From sequence record NC_054928.1: a DNA stretch of 64,000 bases; one strand, 5' to 3'. The notes under the pieces are model-generated. The model saw only the letters and a list, made by a program, of their open reading frames with translations. It did not search any database and had not been told where the DNA came from. Origin of the DNA: Escherichia phage vB_vPM_PD112. Positions 13,561 through 29,607 of this stretch are shown here, piece after piece (within the stretch, counting starts at the first letter, position 1; every line of letters begins with the position of its first letter). The position numbers and the translations under genes are program-made.

Positions 13561-13974
13561 TTATTCCTTAAAGTGAGCTTTCAACATCTGATACAAGGAC
13601 CATGCTTGTTCATTATTTTCAATAGTAACTTTCATTACCGGGAATTCAGATGGTTCAGTTACTGGTGCAGGGTCTTCCTGCTCTTCAGCTGCCTGGTATG
13701 GATTTTCAACTTCATCAAAGAATTCAGCTTCATTCGATGAAAGCCAAATAAAATCTTCATCCAAAATATCTTTACCGGAGGATAATGCCAATCTTCCAGT
13801 AGATGTCACAATTTTAGTAGGACGACCAAGATAGTCAATATCTATAACTTTAAAAGGTTCCATACCTAAACGTCGTGCATAAATTCCGTTTTCAGTATGA
13901 TATTTAATAAATTTTTCTTGAGCTTGTTTATTTTTAAATTGATACCATTTATTAACTTCAAATTTAATAGCCAT
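13561..13974 (-). CDS. hypothetical protein, about 137 aa (possibly goF by position)
   Basis: Track ORF starts on TTG; first ATG overlaps upstream stop (TAATG); name from T4 gene order only. Confidence 0.45.
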
Positions 13975-25262: not shown

Positions 25263-25463
25263 ATGGTACAAAAATTAATGACACTTGTTAATGCCATCAA
25301 AGGTAATAAGAAACGTATAGCTTTTACTATTTCTGCTATGATAGGAATTTTACTTTGGAATTTTGTTTTATCGCCAGTTGCTATTGCTCATGGCGTTAGT
25401 ATTCCAGTAATTACTCTTGATACATTCGTAGATTTAGCGTTTGCTTTAGTTGGGTTAATTTAA
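25263..25463 (+). CDS. small hydrophobic protein on the plus strand, 66 aa
   Basis: Fills the only sizeable gap between dam and 61; strong SD AAAGGAGGA 5 nt before ATG; two hydrophobic spans. Confidence 0.45.
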   Translation: MVQKLMTLVNAIKGNKKRIAFTISAMIGILLWNFVLSPVAIAHGVSIPVITLDTFVDLAFALVGLI

Positions 25464-26488
25464 ATCTTAGCATATTTAGATAGCCGCATTTTAGCCATCA
25501 ACCCCTGGGCAATATTATTTTTCATATATTCCATAATTTGTTCAGGGGTTGCACCTTCCTTTCTAATCATATCATTGACATCTTTTGATTTCCAGGGAGA
25601 TTTATCCCAAAACATAACCCTTTCTCCTGCATCAACTAATTTAGTCATTCGTTTAATAGTGTCAGGGTGACGAGGTTCATTATCTAAAACCCATACACGC
25701 CTATCTTTAAATGGAACAATTTCTAGGTCTAATTGACCACCCGTAATAGCTATACCATTTTCAATAAAAAGTGAATCTATAGGTCCTTCTAGAACATATA
25801 CATCACCATCTTTAACCCGTTCAACACCATAGATTTTTGTTGCCTCAGGATAAGCTTTGATGGTGATATATTTTTGAGGAGCATCTTTCTTTAATGCGCG
25901 TCCTTGAAAAGACTCAGCTTTTCCATTAGCGTTATAAATTGGAATAACAAGACGAGGCTCAGGTATTTCCTTTTTATATGTTCCTGGCGCTATACTATTA
26001 ACTAATTTAGGCCATTCAGTTGTAAACCAAAGATATTTCCATTTATCCTTTGGAATACAACGAGCTTTTACGTATTTTATAATTGGATGGTCTTCCGCCA
26101 GTTTATCTAATCTAACACATGACGGAAGAGATTTAATTATTTTCTTCTCAGGTTGTTTAGGAAGTTCTTTAGGTTTTTCTACTGGACGACTTTTACCTTT
26201 TTCTTTTCTTATTTCAAAGATATACTCACGATATAAATCGGGTTCAAACTCCTTTAAATATATTCCGATTGGTGCATGATAGTTACAGTTATAACAATGA
26301 ATATTTCCTTCATTATTATCACCATAATACCATCCACGGGCTTTATTTTGGTCGGTTTTTGAATCTCCACAAACAGGGCATCTAAACCGTAATTTAAAAG
26401 TTGAACTATTATTTACTTGTGTGAATTTAGGTAAATGAGCCAATGCACGATATGCAAACTCATTATCAATCCAAGGTATTGATGACAT
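25460..26488 (-). CDS. 61: DNA primase
   Basis: 342 aa, the T4 gp61 length; zinc ribbon CPVCGDS...CYNC and TOPRIM region. Confidence 0.95.
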   Translation of the reverse strand: MSSIPWIDNEFAYRALAHLPKFTQVNNSSTFKLRFRCPVCGDSKTDQNKARGWYYGDNNEGNIHCYNCNYHAPIGIYLKEFEPDLYREYIFEIRKEKGKSRPVEKPKELPKQPEKKIIKSLPSCVRLDKLAEDHPIIKYVKARCIPKDKWKYLWFTTEWPKLVNSIAPGTYKKEIPEPRLVIPIYNANGKAESFQGRALKKDAPQKYITIKAYPEATKIYGVERVKDGDVYVLEGPIDSLFIENGIAITGGQLDLEIVPFKDRRVWVLDNEPRHPDTIKRMTKLVDAGERVMFWDKSPWKSKDVNDMIRKEGATPEQIMEYMKNNIAQGLMAKMRLSKYAKI

Positions 26489-26490
26489 TT

Positions 26491-26655
26491 TTACTCTTCT
26501 TTTTCTTTAGATTCCTCTTTTTTCTTTTTAGGAATCTGTTCAGGACCTTTATTTACTACAGCGCCTGACGTTGTTCCAGTGGAGATATTTTCAGGATTAC
26601 CACCTGAATCTCCAGCTACCATATCTTCTTTAATAAATTCTTTATATGTTTTCAT
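26491..26655 (-). CDS. small acidic protein, 54 aa
   Basis: Hand-translated MKTYKEFIKEDMVAGDSGGNPENISTG...; not in track. Confidence 0.4.
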   Translation of the reverse strand: MKTYKEFIKEDMVAGDSGGNPENISTGTTSGAVVNKGPEQIPKKKKEESKEKEE

Positions 26656-26656
26656 A

Positions 26657-27013
26657 TTAACCTCTATTCATAAAAGCATTAAAAATTTGGTCATCAATCG
26701 ACGGAATAGCAACCTTTTCTGCATCATTTAACAAATCATTAATTTCATCAGATAGCATAACACATGTACCTTTATTTCCTGTAATTGTTACTGCACAATT
26801 ACGAACGTTTTCTTTATCAAATTTTAGGTTAATATTTTCGTAGTGAAAATCCTTTAATGCCGAATATATTTTTAAAATGAAATTGTCTTTTACTACAATA
26901 AACCCAACCTCGCTATTAAAACGTGGTTCATGGAAACTGTAATAAACCTTTTCATCTATAAAATCGTATGAAATTTTTTCCATTTTTAAATATGAAAATT
27001 CAGAACTATACAT
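26657..27013 (-). CDS. hypothetical protein, 118 aa
   Basis: Track ORF, ATG start. Confidence 0.5.
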   Translation of the reverse strand: MYSSEFSYLKMEKISYDFIDEKVYYSFHEPRFNSEVGFIVVKDNFILKIYSALKDFHYENINLKFDKENVRNCAVTITGNKGTCVMLSDEINDLLNDAEKVAIPSIDDQIFNAFMNRG

Positions 27014-27025
27014 ATTAACCTCTAA

Positions 27026-27319
27026 TTACTCACCTACCACTTCAGCGATGATATTTTTATTATTGAAGTTTTTATCGCAATACAGAATATAATTATACTG
27101 CATTACACCACCAGACTTAAGCTGTTTTTGCACTTCAGCTTTCATTTCAGGACGATCACGCTTAACGATATTCATAATATCTGCTTCAATTTGAGTTTCA
27201 ACCTCAGTCTGATCTGCAGTCATAGACCATTCGCACAAATCTTTATCATAACCTGCCATAGCAGGCTGAGCAGCACAAGAAGCTAAAGCAAAAATTGCAG
27301 CAAAAACAAATTTTTTCAT
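27026..27319 (-). CDS. sp: periplasmic protein, probably Sp (spackle, superinfection exclusion)
   Basis: 97 aa with cleavable signal peptide MKKFVFAAIFALASCAAQPAMA; size and place in the 61-41 interval fit T4 Sp. Confidence 0.55.
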   Translation of the reverse strand: MKKFVFAAIFALASCAAQPAMAGYDKDLCEWSMTADQTEVETQIEADIMNIVKRDRPEMKAEVQKQLKSGGVMQYNYILYCDKNFNNKNIIAEVVGE

Positions 27320-27347
27320 GATAATCTCCTCAGTAGTTTATGTTTAT

Positions 27348-27376
27348 ATAGTATCTCAATTTCCAACAAAAGTAAA
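27348..27376 (-). promoter_or_regulatory. T4-early-type promoter upstream of the sp-like gene
   Basis: Minus strand TTTACT (plus 27371-27376), 17 nt, TACTAT (plus 27348-27353). Confidence 0.65.
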
Positions 27377-27631
27377 CTATTTTATTTCCTCAAGTTCGTT
27401 AATCAATAAAAGTTCTCTGACGCTAAAAACAAAGAAAAATGTGTTCCCATCAACCAGAGCATGACCGCTAATAGAACACCCTCTGCGGAATTTAGAAACT
27501 TCACAATCTAGAACTGTAAAGGGTTTTAATCCTATGACTTTAGCTGTGCGTCTATTCAGTTCACAACCACTTGCGAATTTTTCCAAATCTTCTTCTGATT
27601 TAAACTGATATTCTCTATTAACTAGCATCAT
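27377..27631 (-). CDS. hypothetical protein, 84 aa
   Basis: Track ORF, ATG start; early promoter upstream. Confidence 0.5.
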   Translation of the reverse strand: MMLVNREYQFKSEEDLEKFASGCELNRRTAKVIGLKPFTVLDCEVSKFRRGCSISGHALVDGNTFFFVFSVRELLLINELEEIK

Positions 27632-27662
27632 TTTCTTTTCTCCGCGATTAGCTGATAGAATT

Positions 27663-27691
27663 ACTATAACACAACTCTATCAGCTTGTAAA
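27663..27691 (-). promoter_or_regulatory. T4-early-type promoter
   Basis: Minus strand TTTACA (plus 27686-27691), 17 nt, TATAGT (plus 27663-27668). Confidence 0.65.
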
Positions 27692-27715
27692 CTACTATTT
27701 TACTAGCATCAATAA

Positions 27716-27976
27716 CTATTTCTCTAACTTGACGATTTTACGAAAGTATCTTTTGCATTGACGAATCTGTCGCTTCGTAGGGCGCACAGCAAACTTAATA
27801 AATTCCACTCGACCAAATGGAGGACTTTCTTCTGCTGGAATATCTAACACCAATTCCCACGTATCGGCAATAAGTGCTTTGAATTGCGTATTTTTCCTGA
27901 CGTTATACGGAGTAGGTTTAAATAAAACGATATGCATATTATCCTCGGCAATCCACTTCGCATACTTTCTTATCAT
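27716..27976 (-). CDS. hypothetical protein, 86 aa
   Basis: Track ORF trimmed from TTG to the adjacent ATG. Confidence 0.5.
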   Translation of the reverse strand: MIRKYAKWIAEDNMHIVLFKPTPYNVRKNTQFKALIADTWELVLDIPAEESPPFGRVEFIKFAVRPTKRQIRQCKRYFRKIVKLEK

Positions 27977-28121
27977 CAATGAAAGCTTTAACTAAAGCTT
28001 TATTAACTTCAGCATATTGAGTAGTAGCCCATTGAACGTCATCTTTCATCATTGCGGTTTCTTTAGTAAACATGCTTTCATTCTTAAACCACCCCATAAA
28101 AACTACCTTTACCAATTCCAT
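27939..28121 (-). CDS. dmd: Dmd-like antitoxin (inhibitor of RnlA/LsoA RNases)
   Basis: 60 aa, the T4 Dmd length; sits immediately downstream of helicase 41 with its own early promoter. Confidence 0.55.
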   Translation of the reverse strand: MELVKVVFMGWFKNESMFTKETAMMKDDVQWATTQYAEVNKALVKAFIDDKKVCEVDCRG

Positions 28122-28150
28122 AACAATCTCCTCATTTAACCAACAAGACT

Positions 28151-28179
28151 ACTATACCATAGTCTTGTCAGCTTGTAAA
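28151..28179 (-). promoter_or_regulatory. T4-early-type promoter upstream of dmd
   Basis: Minus strand TTTACA (plus 28174-28179), 17 nt, TATAGT (plus 28151-28156); palindrome CAAGACT..AGTCTTG spans the -10. Confidence 0.65.
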
Positions 28180-29607
28180 CTAAAATTTTAATTCATTTGC
28201 CAAAGCATCTAACTGAGCTCGAGTCGATTCGTTTCTTTGATAGCGATTCTGTTCAGCCTGAATCTGTTGTGAACCTGCTACTTCACTCACTTCAGTTGGA
28301 GTAGAATCTTGTTCAATTTCTACCCATTTCTGATTTCCTTTTTGAACACCCATCAAAAACTTATTCCATTTATTCTTATCACCATATCGTGATTTGATTT
28401 GCTTAATGAGTTGTTGTTCAGCAGCTGCTAGCTCCTCGGTTTCAATGACCGCAAGCATAAAATCAGCTGTCGCTGGAAGACCAGCAGATTCTGCAATATC
28501 GCTCATGTTAACATCAGAAGAATCCCAAGCTTGTTTACCAACCTGTGCTGCAGTCCAAAGAACAGTTTCGGTTTCAACAGCCAGAGCACGCAATTCTTCT
28601 GCAATAGCTTTAACAGTTGTGTAACTATTTTCTGAATAAACTCTAATGCGGCAAGATTTACAAATACCTAGATAGTCGACAATAATGATTGTTGGAACAA
28701 AATTCTTCTTGAGCTTCAATTCATTCAAGAGAGACCTGAATGTGTTAGCATCTGCTCCACCAGTAGGATACTGTTTAACGATTAAACGACCAAGAGTAGA
28801 TTTCTCACGCCATTTTTCCATTTTTCCTTTATACTCAGCGTAAGAAATATGCCCATCATCAATGTCATCAAGAGAAACATCGAGCATATTAGCGTCAATA
28901 CGTTTAGCACAGACTTCTTCTGCCATTTCCATGGAAATGTAAAGAACATTATGACCGAGCTGTAAATAATCTGCTGCCAATGAACACAATCCTAATGACT
29001 TACCAACGTTAACACCAGCCATTAAAACGTTCAGTGTTCCAGTCTCAGCTCCGCCTTTAGTAATTTTGTTTAGAATTCTGAGTTTAAATGGAACCTTACG
29101 AGCTTTATTCATATAAGATAGCCAACGTGCTTCGTAGTCATCCATCCAATCATGACCAACGTAACTATCAAATGAAATTGATAATGCTTGACGCATAATG
29201 TCAGGAATAGCACCAACATCCGGCATTTTCTTATTTCGTTTTTCCGGAGGAAGCTCAGCATTAGTTTGAATTTCGATTATTTTAGACGTAGCATTAAACA
29301 TCGCCCTTTGCTGAACATATTTTTCTGTTTCTTTTACTAACCAGCTGTGGTCTTCCGGAGAATCAGCTAGTTTTGAAATAAGTGTTTTTACACCAGAATA
29401 TTCTGTTTCAGTAAATGAACTATTTTCTAATGCAACATTTAACGCATTAATAGATGGAACGCTATGGTACTCATTAACATGAGATTTAATTAATTTGAAT
29501 GTATTTTTAGCTGGACCACTTTCAAAATATTCTGAATCCATATATGGCCAAACTTTTGAAAAATAAGCTTGATCAAATATGAGATGAGAAAGAATAATTT
29601 CTACCAC
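28180..29607 (-). CDS. 41: replicative DNA helicase (DnaB-like)
   Basis: 475 aa, the T4 gp41 length; start codon is GTG with SD AAGGAG 6 nt upstream. Confidence 0.95.
   Translation of the reverse strand: MVEIILSHLIFDQAYFSKVWPYMDSEYFESGPAKNTFKLIKSHVNEYHSVPSINALNVALENSSFTETEYSGVKTLISKLADSPEDHSWLVKETEKYVQQRAMFNATSKIIEIQTNAELPPEKRNKKMPDVGAIPDIMRQALSISFDSYVGHDWMDDYEARWLSYMNKARKVPFKLRILNKITKGGAETGTLNVLMAGVNVGKSLGLCSLAADYLQLGHNVLYISMEMAEEVCAKRIDANMLDVSLDDIDDGHISYAEYKGKMEKWREKSTLGRLIVKQYPTGGADANTFRSLLNELKLKKNFVPTIIIVDYLGICKSCRIRVYSENSYTTVKAIAEELRALAVETETVLWTAAQVGKQAWDSSDVNMSDIAESAGLPATADFMLAVIETEELAAAEQQLIKQIKSRYGDKNKWNKFLMGVQKGNQKWVEIEQDSTPTEVSEVAGSQQIQAEQNRYQRNESTRAQLDALANELKF

Follow-up and report, generated by a model that had tools for sequence, protein, structure and literature searches.

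The window analysed here, a stretch of 64,000 nucleotides from Escherichia phage vB_vPM_PD112 (NC_054928.1), contains four minus-strand ORFs within positions 27026-28179, and the minus strand carries every gene of this interval. The region is 99.8% identical to that of phage CE1 (vB_EcoM_CE1), and 478 further T4-like records match it at 95-99% identity. Judged by its sequence, the stretch comes from a Tequatrovirus. The gene order 41, dmd, 61.4, sp, 61.2, 61.1, 61 is shared with T4, and the interval represents an early accessory-gene cluster of the T-even phages, situated between gene 41 (replicative helicase) and gene 61 (primase). The corresponding interval of T4 has been proposed to be an 'anti-TA island' (Srikant et al., 2022, PMC9391042). 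The 97-, 84-, and 60-aa ORFs are present as described in a first-pass annotation made from the sequence alone. An Rfam scan of 26300-28600 gave no match. The gene identities, promoter motifs, conserved stem-loops, and cassette boundaries described below were observed directly.

Table 1. Features of the region between genes 41 and 61, and the corresponding interval of T4.
Feature	Position	Strand	Description
dmd-tifA operon promoter	28151..28179	-	TTTACA-N17-TATAGT
dmd promoter stem-loop	28139..28172	-	12-bp stem enclosing the -10 box; PeSL-type promoter and stem-loop module
dmd	27939..28121	-	60 aa
Over-extended tifA frame	27716-27979	-	87 aa with a TTG start, 86 aa with an ATG start
tifA (gene 61.4)	27716..27937	-	73 aa
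ORF84 promoter	27663..27691	-	TTTACA-N17-TATAGT
ORF84 promoter stem-loop	27651..27684	-	12-bp stem enclosing the -10 box
ORF84	27377..27631	-	84 aa; accessory, not in T4
sp promoter	27348..27376	-	TTTACT-N17-TACTAT
sp (Spackle)	27026..27319	-	97 aa
T4 41-61 interval	NC_000866 18966-20553		61.1, 61.2/adfA, sp, 61.4/tifA, dmd

When searched with the published T4/PST early-promoter consensus TTTACW-N17-TAYWRT (elsewhere written TTTACW-N17-TAYWAT), the whole window gives 21 matches compared to 0.71 expected from shuffled sequences, and all 21 are found on the minus (coding) strand. Three of them fall in 27026-28179, directly upstream of dmd, ORF84, and sp. The dmd promoter has an A/T-rich upstream element within the 3' end of gene 41, the stop codon of which (TAG) abuts the -35 box. 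The sp promoter begins directly after the ORF84 stop codon, and its sequence is identical to that of T4 in the alignment. For T4, a promoter downstream of tifA has been mentioned (Srikant et al., 2022, PMC9391042). It was claimed earlier that each of the small ORFs has a promoter of its own. This is correct for dmd, ORF84, and sp, but not for tifA, which has no consensus match ahead of it; since tifA is coupled to dmd, there are three early promoters for the four genes. These T4-type promoters would be transcribed by the host sigma-70 RNA polymerase right after infection, the first unit being dmd-tifA, the second ORF84, and the third sp followed by 61.2 and 61.1.

Two of the promoters are combined with a stem-loop (Table 1), and the 89-nt intergenic stretch around that of dmd (28112-28200) folds at -21.3 kcal/mol. 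The sp promoter is without a stable stem-loop, the 91-nt region around it giving only -6.6 kcal/mol. The stem-loop is conserved with covariation in an alignment of five related modules, where 98% of the cells are paired and six of the 12 pairs have changed on both sides. These modules are comparable to the cassettes known from T4-type phages as PeSL, for promoter-early stem-loop (Arbiol et al., 2010, PMC2839356; Comeau et al., 2014, PMC4122927). As in those, the promoters fit the T4/PST PeSL consensus and have an A/T-rich upstream region, a conserved stem-loop is found at two of the three (dmd and ORF84, not sp), and the ORFs next to the modules are small, accessory, and variable between close relatives. 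However, the stem encloses the -10 box, while the G/C-rich terminator hairpin of PeSL sits beside the promoter. There is also no T-run 3' of the stems, and an intrinsic-terminator scan returned no sites.

As proposed in the first-pass annotation, the 97-aa ORF with a signal peptide is Sp. It is 97% identical to T4 Sp (94 of 97 residues) and matches the Pfam family T4_Spackle (PF25676) over its full length (E 2e-44, 150.5 bits, cut-off 27). The N-terminal signal peptide is predicted to be cleavable, with the cut between MKKFVFAAIFALASCAAQPAMA (ending in AQPAMA) and the following G. The protein further matches the PDB entries 6x6o and 7cn6, and the crystallised mature protein of the latter aligns from residue 23. 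T4 Sp is periplasmic, where it binds and inhibits the lysozyme domain of gp5 (PMC7677548). From the high identity we infer that the Sp encoded here also inhibits the gp5 lysozyme, and the exported protein would then block that of superinfecting phages in the periplasm.

The identification of the 60-aa ORF as Dmd was likewise borne out. It shares 58 of 60 residues (97%) with T4 Dmd, the two substitutions being at residues 22-23, and it matches Pfam PF17587 (E 1e-44, 151.1 bits, cut-off 27) and the PDB entry 5hy3_B, 'Antitoxin Dmd' (E 5e-36). A scan of IMG/VR with Dmd returned five loci, too few for statistics. T4 Dmd is described in the literature as an antitoxin-like protein that neutralises RnlA and LsoA, two RNase toxins of the host, and by analogy the protein encoded here would bind and neutralise both of them.

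The gene following dmd was originally taken to be an uncharacterised ORF of 86 amino acids, possibly involved in anti-defence. That guess was right in spirit, but the start had been placed too far upstream and the product is the published TifA. The ATG at 27937 sits 1 nt past the dmd stop codon (GAGGATAAtATG) and is preceded by a GAGGA Shine-Dalgarno sequence. The equivalent start is used in the annotations of both T4 and CE1, and the identity to T4 gp61.4 begins exactly at this methionine. The product is therefore 73 amino acids long, and all 73 are identical to residues 1-73 of gp61.4; the seven nucleotide differences from T4 tifA are all synonymous. TifA also matches Pfam DUF7279 (PF23945; E 2e-20, 73.2 bits, cut-off 24.5), while NCBIfam and PADLOC gave no match. 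The 86-aa reading, with a start at ATG 27976, an overlap with the end of dmd, and an internal promoter of its own, can hardly be correct: the reading frame does extend to 27979 without a stop, but no Shine-Dalgarno sequence precedes ATG 27976, an overlap of about 40 nt with dmd would be needed, dmd contains no consensus match, the annotated starts in T4 and CE1 are at the downstream ATG, and the published work on TifA uses a protein starting with MHIVLF.

By their sequence context, dmd and tifA belong to a single operon of two genes, coupled by TAAtATG and driven from upstream of dmd, with no promoter match between the two genes, and translation of tifA would proceed by coupling to dmd. A dmd-tifA operon has also been described for T4, where the tifA promoter was placed upstream of dmd (Srikant et al., 2022, PMC9391042). 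TifA inhibits the toxin ToxN and binds RNA (PMC9391042; PMC10853763). The residues F41, P53, T54, K55, R56, and R59 have been shown to matter for the protein, and the last five of them belong to a Pro-Thr helix cap and basic helix that RNA binding and the inhibition of ToxN require (PMC10853763). All six residues, and thus the complete cap and basic helix (5/5), are kept in the TifA encoded here. It would accordingly be expected to bind both RNA and ToxN, a type III toxin, which is thereby caught in an inactive ribonucleoprotein.

TifA from T2, T4, and T6 share a C-terminal extension, residues 74-85, which is missing here. In a four-phage alignment codon 74 is TAG, while T4 has CAG, and the 12-aa tail of T4 TifA is therefore not made; the form in PP01 has 80 aa. 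RB69 TifA is also without the tail, yet it is a stronger inhibitor (PMC9391042), so the extension is not family-defining, and from RB69 we infer that the TifA encoded here works without it.

The interval is thus close to that of T4 when it comes to gene order, strand, the dmd and sp promoters, and the coupling of dmd and tifA, and the Sp, Dmd, and TifA proteins are 97-100% identical. It differs in having an extra promoter and the ORF84 cassette between tifA and sp, in the length of TifA (73 aa compared to 85 aa in T4), and in 61.2, which here encodes a 118-aa variant with about 35% identity to T4 AdfA (208 aa) in the C-terminal part of the latter. What Dmd, TifA, and Sp do biochemically is carried over from the literature on the nearly identical T4 proteins; for T4 these functions are in textbooks or were published recently, and the copies found here add little new. 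Taken as a whole, the locus is very probably best explained as an early cluster of Dmd, TifA, and Spackle units to which ORF84 has been added, possibly as an early RNA-acting modulator. The cluster is ordinary, already-known biology, and ORF84 is the sole gene left uncharacterised. As an accessory gene it is well defined, and three inhibitors of host toxins are already known from its locus.

The promoter, the stem-loop, and ORF84 make up a self-contained cassette between tifA and sp, which is lacking in T4. Its boundaries were read from the four-phage alignment. The right edge is at a GTTTAC box, while the left edge is found within tifA, at codon 74-75, where there is no promoter. Recombination from promoter to promoter accounts for the right edge only. 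For comparison, PP01 has an extra 65-aa ORF with GTTTACTTTT repeats on either side and both boundaries at GTTTAC boxes. Where T4 has the final 36 nt of its tifA-sp junction, the present phage has the ORF84 cassette, a replacement that also takes away the 12-aa tail of TifA, which would be non-essential. The left boundary inside tifA is a further difference from the PeSL cassettes, as is the lack of an 'empty site' relative: among the matches listed, all of at least 99% identity, an ORF84-type tifA tail joined to the sp promoter was not found, and every best match listed is a two-piece match spanning ORF84. A 22-nt repeat linking the start of ORF84 to the tifA-tail region was judged to be within chance.

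The 84-aa ORF was earlier regarded as uncharacterised. Experimentally this is so, but it does belong to a family. BLASTP aligns it to T4 GoF (E 2e-8), it matches phrog_2980 (E 3e-20), and a full-length alignment to GoF residues 1-90 gives about 30% identity (29-32%). Rather than being an orphan, ORF84 is by sequence a stand-alone homolog of the N-terminal domain of GoF. The predicted fold is a compact and confident bent five-stranded antiparallel barrel of the SH3/LSm-like type, with FeoA, IdeR, and T4 MotB.1 as structural neighbours. [quoted passage not shown] (2025, PMC12152347) as early proteins of Tevenvirinae with an LSm-like fold. ORF84 resembles this family in being an early gene with a predicted barrel and the same structural neighbours, but it is accessory and not conserved across T4-like phages. 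It further differs from GoF in that it ends where the N-terminal domain ends, without the acidic flexible linker and the C-terminal domain, and in lying in the 41-61 interval, while goF adjoins gene 39. A full goF is also present in the window (13564-13974).

ORF84 is carried by about 83 of about 500 T4-like records (82 of the 574 that match the region), and most T4-like phages do without it. The gene is under purifying selection, with dN/dS values of 0.05-0.17 between homologs at which synonymous sites are near saturation, and the frame is intact in homologs of 55-81% identity from three lineages. When 1.84 billion representatives were searched exhaustively with a profile, only 14 matches came back. 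In two metagenomic T4-like loci without dmd in the 41-61 interval (L013 and L015), the ORF84 homolog is promoter-proximal and found just upstream of tifA, in the slot that dmd occupies in T4, and the promoter, the 5' leader, and the Shine-Dalgarno sequence are kept with the gene. A relationship between ORF84 and Dmd, suggested by this position and by similar-looking motifs, was rejected, as BLASTP gave no alignment and the hhalign probability was 0.07%.

ORF84 is a modest candidate for an RNA-associated or anti-defence gene. Its target early in infection would be RNA itself or a protein that handles RNA, and it would be an optional modulator of transcript stability that possibly shields phage mRNA from a host RNase. 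In a reporter assay by Kim et al. (2025, PMC12152347), wild-type GoF had no clear effect on RNA and only the D25Y mutant did, the one case of an effect on RNA shown within the family; ORF84 has G22 where GoF has D25.

ORF84 might instead be a dedicated anti-defence protein that binds a host TA or abortive-infection RNase or some other immune effector, and so join Dmd, TifA, and AdfA as the fourth such factor of the anti-TA island. The remaining genes of the island have indeed been called 'attractive candidates' (Srikant et al., 2022, PMC9391042). An accessory occurrence (82 of 574 region-matching records), an early promoter of its own, purifying selection, and the placement of the homolog ahead of tifA in L013 and L015 all fit such a role. 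It is nevertheless rather unlikely: ORF84 has no similarity to Dmd, its relatives GoF and MotB.1 are without a known defence-related phenotype, and the location says little by itself, since Sp, which is encoded in this cluster too, does not act against TA systems. The lack of a PADLOC match also counts against it but weighs little, as PADLOC models defence and not anti-defence proteins. Also unlikely is the more elaborate proposal that ORF84 is a new small anti-defence factor, in which a stand-alone GoF-type SH3/LSm-like domain, carried on a promoter-bounded cassette, guards the early transcripts of the phage against an RNase-type toxin or abortive-infection effector of the host and replaces dmd as the operon partner of tifA where the 41-61 interval has no dmd. 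If this proposal held, the GoF/MotB.1/Frd.2 fold family would also gain its first physiological role.

It is highly improbable that ORF84 is a passenger without a function, left from a partial duplication of goF, decaying, and carried on a mobile promoter cassette. The correspondence to the N-terminal domain only, the full goF elsewhere in the window, and the dispensability of the gene to most T4-like phages are what such a remnant would look like, but the low dN/dS, the frame kept intact in three lineages, the confident compact fold, and the conservation of the Shine-Dalgarno sequence and promoter alongside the gene all argue against it.

The ORF84 subfamily has four invariant residues that are not found in GoF, C23, C43, C52, and H57. 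They might form a Zn site; in a simple hairpin geometry there is no obvious way for the four to meet. NCBIfam and PADLOC gave no match to ORF84, and among PDB sequences there was only a chance zinc-finger match (E 0.93). The multi-stretch profile matches (e.g., P0010) were discarded as C2H2 zinc-finger false positives matching 'KPF.C..CE.SF'.

Under pressure from ToxIN, T4 amplifies dmd-tifA by recombination between short flanking homologies. In the present phage the operon is bracketed by the 64-nt promoter modules of ORF84 (27639-27702) and dmd (28127-28190), which are 70% identical, and these repeats could ease such an amplification.

The small-gene interval between helicase gene 41 and primase gene 61 (27026-28179) is real but ordinary, a known T4 locus met again. 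The 2-kb region around it shares 99.8% identity with Escherichia phage vB_EcoM_CE1 and 95-99% with 478 further Tequatrovirus (T4-like) records. All genes in and around the interval lie on the minus strand, in the same order as in T4: uvsX, 40, 41, dmd, 61.4, sp, 61.2, 61.1, 61, dam. The overall content is already known; the functions of dmd, tifA, and sp have been published for T4, where the 41-61 locus has been proposed as an anti-TA island (PMC9391042). The present analysis demonstrates which genes these are and how their control elements are arranged.

The first-pass annotation had fitted a 60-aa ORF to Dmd and a 97-aa signal-peptide ORF to Sp, and both assignments are borne out by near-identity to the T4 proteins. 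The former matches Pfam Dmd (E 1e-44) and PDB entry 5hy3 'Antitoxin Dmd'; according to the literature on T4 Dmd, it counteracts RnlA and LsoA as a phage-encoded antitoxin. The latter matches Pfam T4_Spackle (E 2e-44) and has solved structures (6x6o, 7cn6); in 7cn6, the mature protein begins at Sp residue 23, directly after the AQPAMA end of the signal peptide. T4 Spackle inhibits the gp5 tail lysozyme in the periplasm and adds to superinfection exclusion (PMC7677548).

The fourth ORF, open over 27716-27979 (87 aa from a TTG), had been read as an uncharacterised candidate of 86 aa. This extended start is rejected: it overlaps dmd by about 40 nt and lacks a Shine-Dalgarno sequence, and the T4 and CE1 annotations both begin the gene at the downstream ATG matching 27937. 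A GAGGA ribosome-binding site precedes that ATG, which lies one base past the dmd stop (…GAGGATAAtATG…), and the identity to T4 gp61.4 starts exactly at its methionine. The real gene thus encodes 73 aa, and since its product equals residues 1-73 of gp61.4, the supposedly uncharacterised ORF is TifA, a published anti-defence protein. All seven nucleotide differences from T4 tifA are synonymous. TifA is the newer name of gp61.4, which inhibits ToxN, a type III toxin; when toxIN is carried on a plasmid, T4 gets past it through amplification of the dmd-tifA operon, whose early promoter lies upstream of dmd (PMC9391042). TifA binds RNA via a basic C-terminal helix with a Pro-Thr cap and sequesters ToxN within a ribonucleoprotein complex (PMC10853763), and F41, P53, T54, K55, R56, and R59 are all kept in the translated TifA of the window.

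Features in and around the 41-61 interval, and the goF ortholog
Feature	Position	Strand	Remarks
dmd promoter	28179-28151	-	consensus match directly upstream of dmd
dmd	27939-28121	-	60 aa; 58/60 residues as in T4 Dmd
tifA (gene 61.4)	27716-27937	-	73 aa; 100% identity to T4 gp61.4 residues 1-73; Pfam DUF7279
ORF84 promoter	27691-27663	-	consensus match directly upstream of ORF84
ORF84	27377-27631	-	84 aa
sp promoter	27376-27348	-	consensus match directly upstream of sp
sp	27026-27319	-	97 aa; 94/97 residues as in T4 Spackle
gene 61.2	26657-27013	-	118-aa variant
66-aa hydrophobic ORF	25263-25463	+	dam-61 gap; 4-nt overlap with gene 61 3' end
goF ortholog	13564-13974	-	full-length; 77% identity to T4 GoF

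The T4/PST early-promoter consensus is TTTACW-N17-TAYWAT (PMC4122927). When the window was searched with TTTACW-N17-TAYWRT, 21 matches were found against 0.71 expected from shuffles, every one on the coding strand. Each small ORF had been credited with a promoter of its own, which is right for dmd, ORF84, and sp; ahead of the 73-aa tifA the pattern search of the window gave no consensus match, and three promoters therefore serve the four genes.

The promoter regions of dmd (28127-28190) and ORF84 (27639-27702) are direct repeats of each other over 64 nt, at 70% identity. Both modules contain a 12-bp stem with the -10 box inside the loop, and the intergenic stretches holding them (89 and 114 nt, respectively) fold at -21 and -23 kcal/mol. 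When five modules were compared (dmd of the window and of T4, ORF84 of the window, and the ORF84 homologs of the metagenomic loci L013 and L015), 98% of the cells were paired, vs 27-60% with the partners slid, and six of the 12 stem pairs had changes on both sides. Because G-U pairs are frequent in the sense strand, these five sequences are suggestive, but only that, of a stem-loop acting in sense RNA, i.e., in transcripts reading through from upstream. No T-run follows either stem, a terminator scan gave zero sites, and folding revealed no comparable stem at the sp promoter. The two repeat modules bracket the dmd-tifA operon. Amplification of the T4 operon under ToxIN pressure uses 6-10-bp microhomologies. 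With the longer repeat found here, amplification of dmd-tifA, or its deletion, might be more frequent. The Shine-Dalgarno regions of ORF84, sp, and dmd (27632-27650, 27320-27340, and 28122-28140, minus strand) contain GGAG, the motif cut by the T4 RegB endoribonuclease, which shuts off early mRNAs.

An alignment of the window with T4, PP01, and P8 (A1) shows identity up to tifA codon 73. In T4, CAG TTT GTA… follows, adding 12 residues, and the sp promoter comes directly after. In the window codon 74 is TAG, and the next 330 nt or so, which have no T4 counterpart, comprise an A/T-rich segment, the promoter and its stem-loop, the Shine-Dalgarno sequence GGAG, and ORF84; T4 homology starts again with the sp promoter, precisely at its GTTTAC -35 box. 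TifA is consequently 85 aa in T4, 80 aa in PP01 (CAG kept at codon 74, then LLMLVK and a stop), and 73 aa in the window, CE1, and P8 (CAG to TAG), and the T4-type tail is absent from all ORF84-carrying phages examined. The form of the tail depends on the adjoining cassette (window 27716-27721; A1 columns 240-250). ORF84 is carried by 82 phage records, and its type of junction is found in about 83 of 501. The cassette behaves like the promoter-early stem-loop (PeSL) cassettes of T4-type hyperplastic regions (PMC2839356, PMC4122927), but unlike the PeSL expectation its left edge lies inside tifA, with no promoter there. No clean empty site was seen among the relatives' matches listed. In PP01, the ORF84-sp gap also contains an ORF of 65 aa (L002 2524-2721) with GTTTACTTTT promoter boxes on both sides, the cleanest promoter-bounded insertion in the 41-61 locus.

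ORF84 was indeed uncharacterised, as first claimed, yet it is an annotated GoF-domain paralog. It matches phrog_2980, labelled 'goF mRNA metabolism modulator' (E 3e-20), and the N-terminal 41 residues of T4 GoF (ComC-alpha, 141 aa; BLASTP E 2e-8), and MAFFT aligns it along GoF residues ~1-90 with 29-32% identity. It is not goF itself, although several RefSeq records give it that label; the window holds its own full-length goF, and ORF84 is thus a second, shorter paralog. Compared with GoF it consists of the N-terminal domain alone, lacking the linker and the C-terminal domain, and C23, C43, C52, and H57, invariant in the ORF84-type homologs (window, P0002-P0004, SP18), are missing from GoF. 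These residues might bind a metal or serve in redox chemistry or dimerisation. The AlphaFold2 model (pLDDT 85.7) shows a small beta-barrel into which two helices are inserted; FeoA and IdeR are the structural neighbours given by Kim et al., who also describe stabilisation of an RNA with the gene 41 leader by GoF(D25Y) but not by wild-type GoF (PMC12152347). When 1.84 billion representatives were searched exhaustively with a profile of the family, only 14 matches came up, the genuine ones all being T4-like phage proteins with the ORF84 domain, sometimes in tandem. ORF84 is a real gene: dN/dS is 0.05-0.17 among homologs with nearly saturated synonymous sites.

Host RNA polymerase would fire the three early promoters immediately on infection. 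The first unit would give Dmd, plus TifA through translational coupling, and the two would counteract RnlA/LsoA and ToxN, RNase toxins that would degrade the phage mRNA if left active. From the sp unit Spackle would be made and exported, blocking the lysozyme of superinfecting T-even phages. For Dmd, TifA, and Sp this biochemistry is taken over from studies of the near-identical T4 proteins. ORF84, expressed from the remaining unit, is tentatively given an RNA-associated role, with the GoF family as the model. The main rival, that it is a specific anti-defence factor, appears unlikely. ORF84 has no sequence relationship to Dmd, and the sole, circumstantial evidence tying it to the anti-toxin theme is the context of its homologs. 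The metagenomic T4-like contigs L013 and L015 have, in this order, 41, a 253-aa ORF, promoter with stem-loop, ORF84 homolog, an optional 50-aa ORF, tifA homolog, and sp; dmd is not detectable anywhere in their 41-61 interval, and the homolog occupies the T4 dmd position as promoter-proximal partner of tifA. In Gaprivervirus SP18 a homolog with 55% identity and a promoter to itself is directly next to gene 41; a further two small genes, then dmd and sp, lie downstream. The RNA-associated and anti-defence roles are not mutually exclusive, since TifA combines both. ORF84 is a small candidate and cheap to test. The 253-aa ORF (2179-2940 in both L013 and L015) has no Pfam match, and L013 has several further small ORFs between sp and 61.

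The product of gene 61.2 aligns only to the C-terminal ~100 residues of the 208-aa T4 AdfA (anti-DarT factor A), with ~35% identity and a Pfam AdfA score of 34 bits, and because of this the phage may be without AdfA-type protection against DarTG. The forms of 61.2 are mixed among relatives: P8 combines ORF84 with full-length AdfA, and the IMG/VR locus L011 has both variants in tandem. The hydrophobic 66-aa ORF is conserved in T4 (91% aa identity), unannotated in NC_000866, and probably a real small membrane-protein gene, given a pN/pS of 0.17-0.27 for its reading frame against 0.7-1.6 for the other two.
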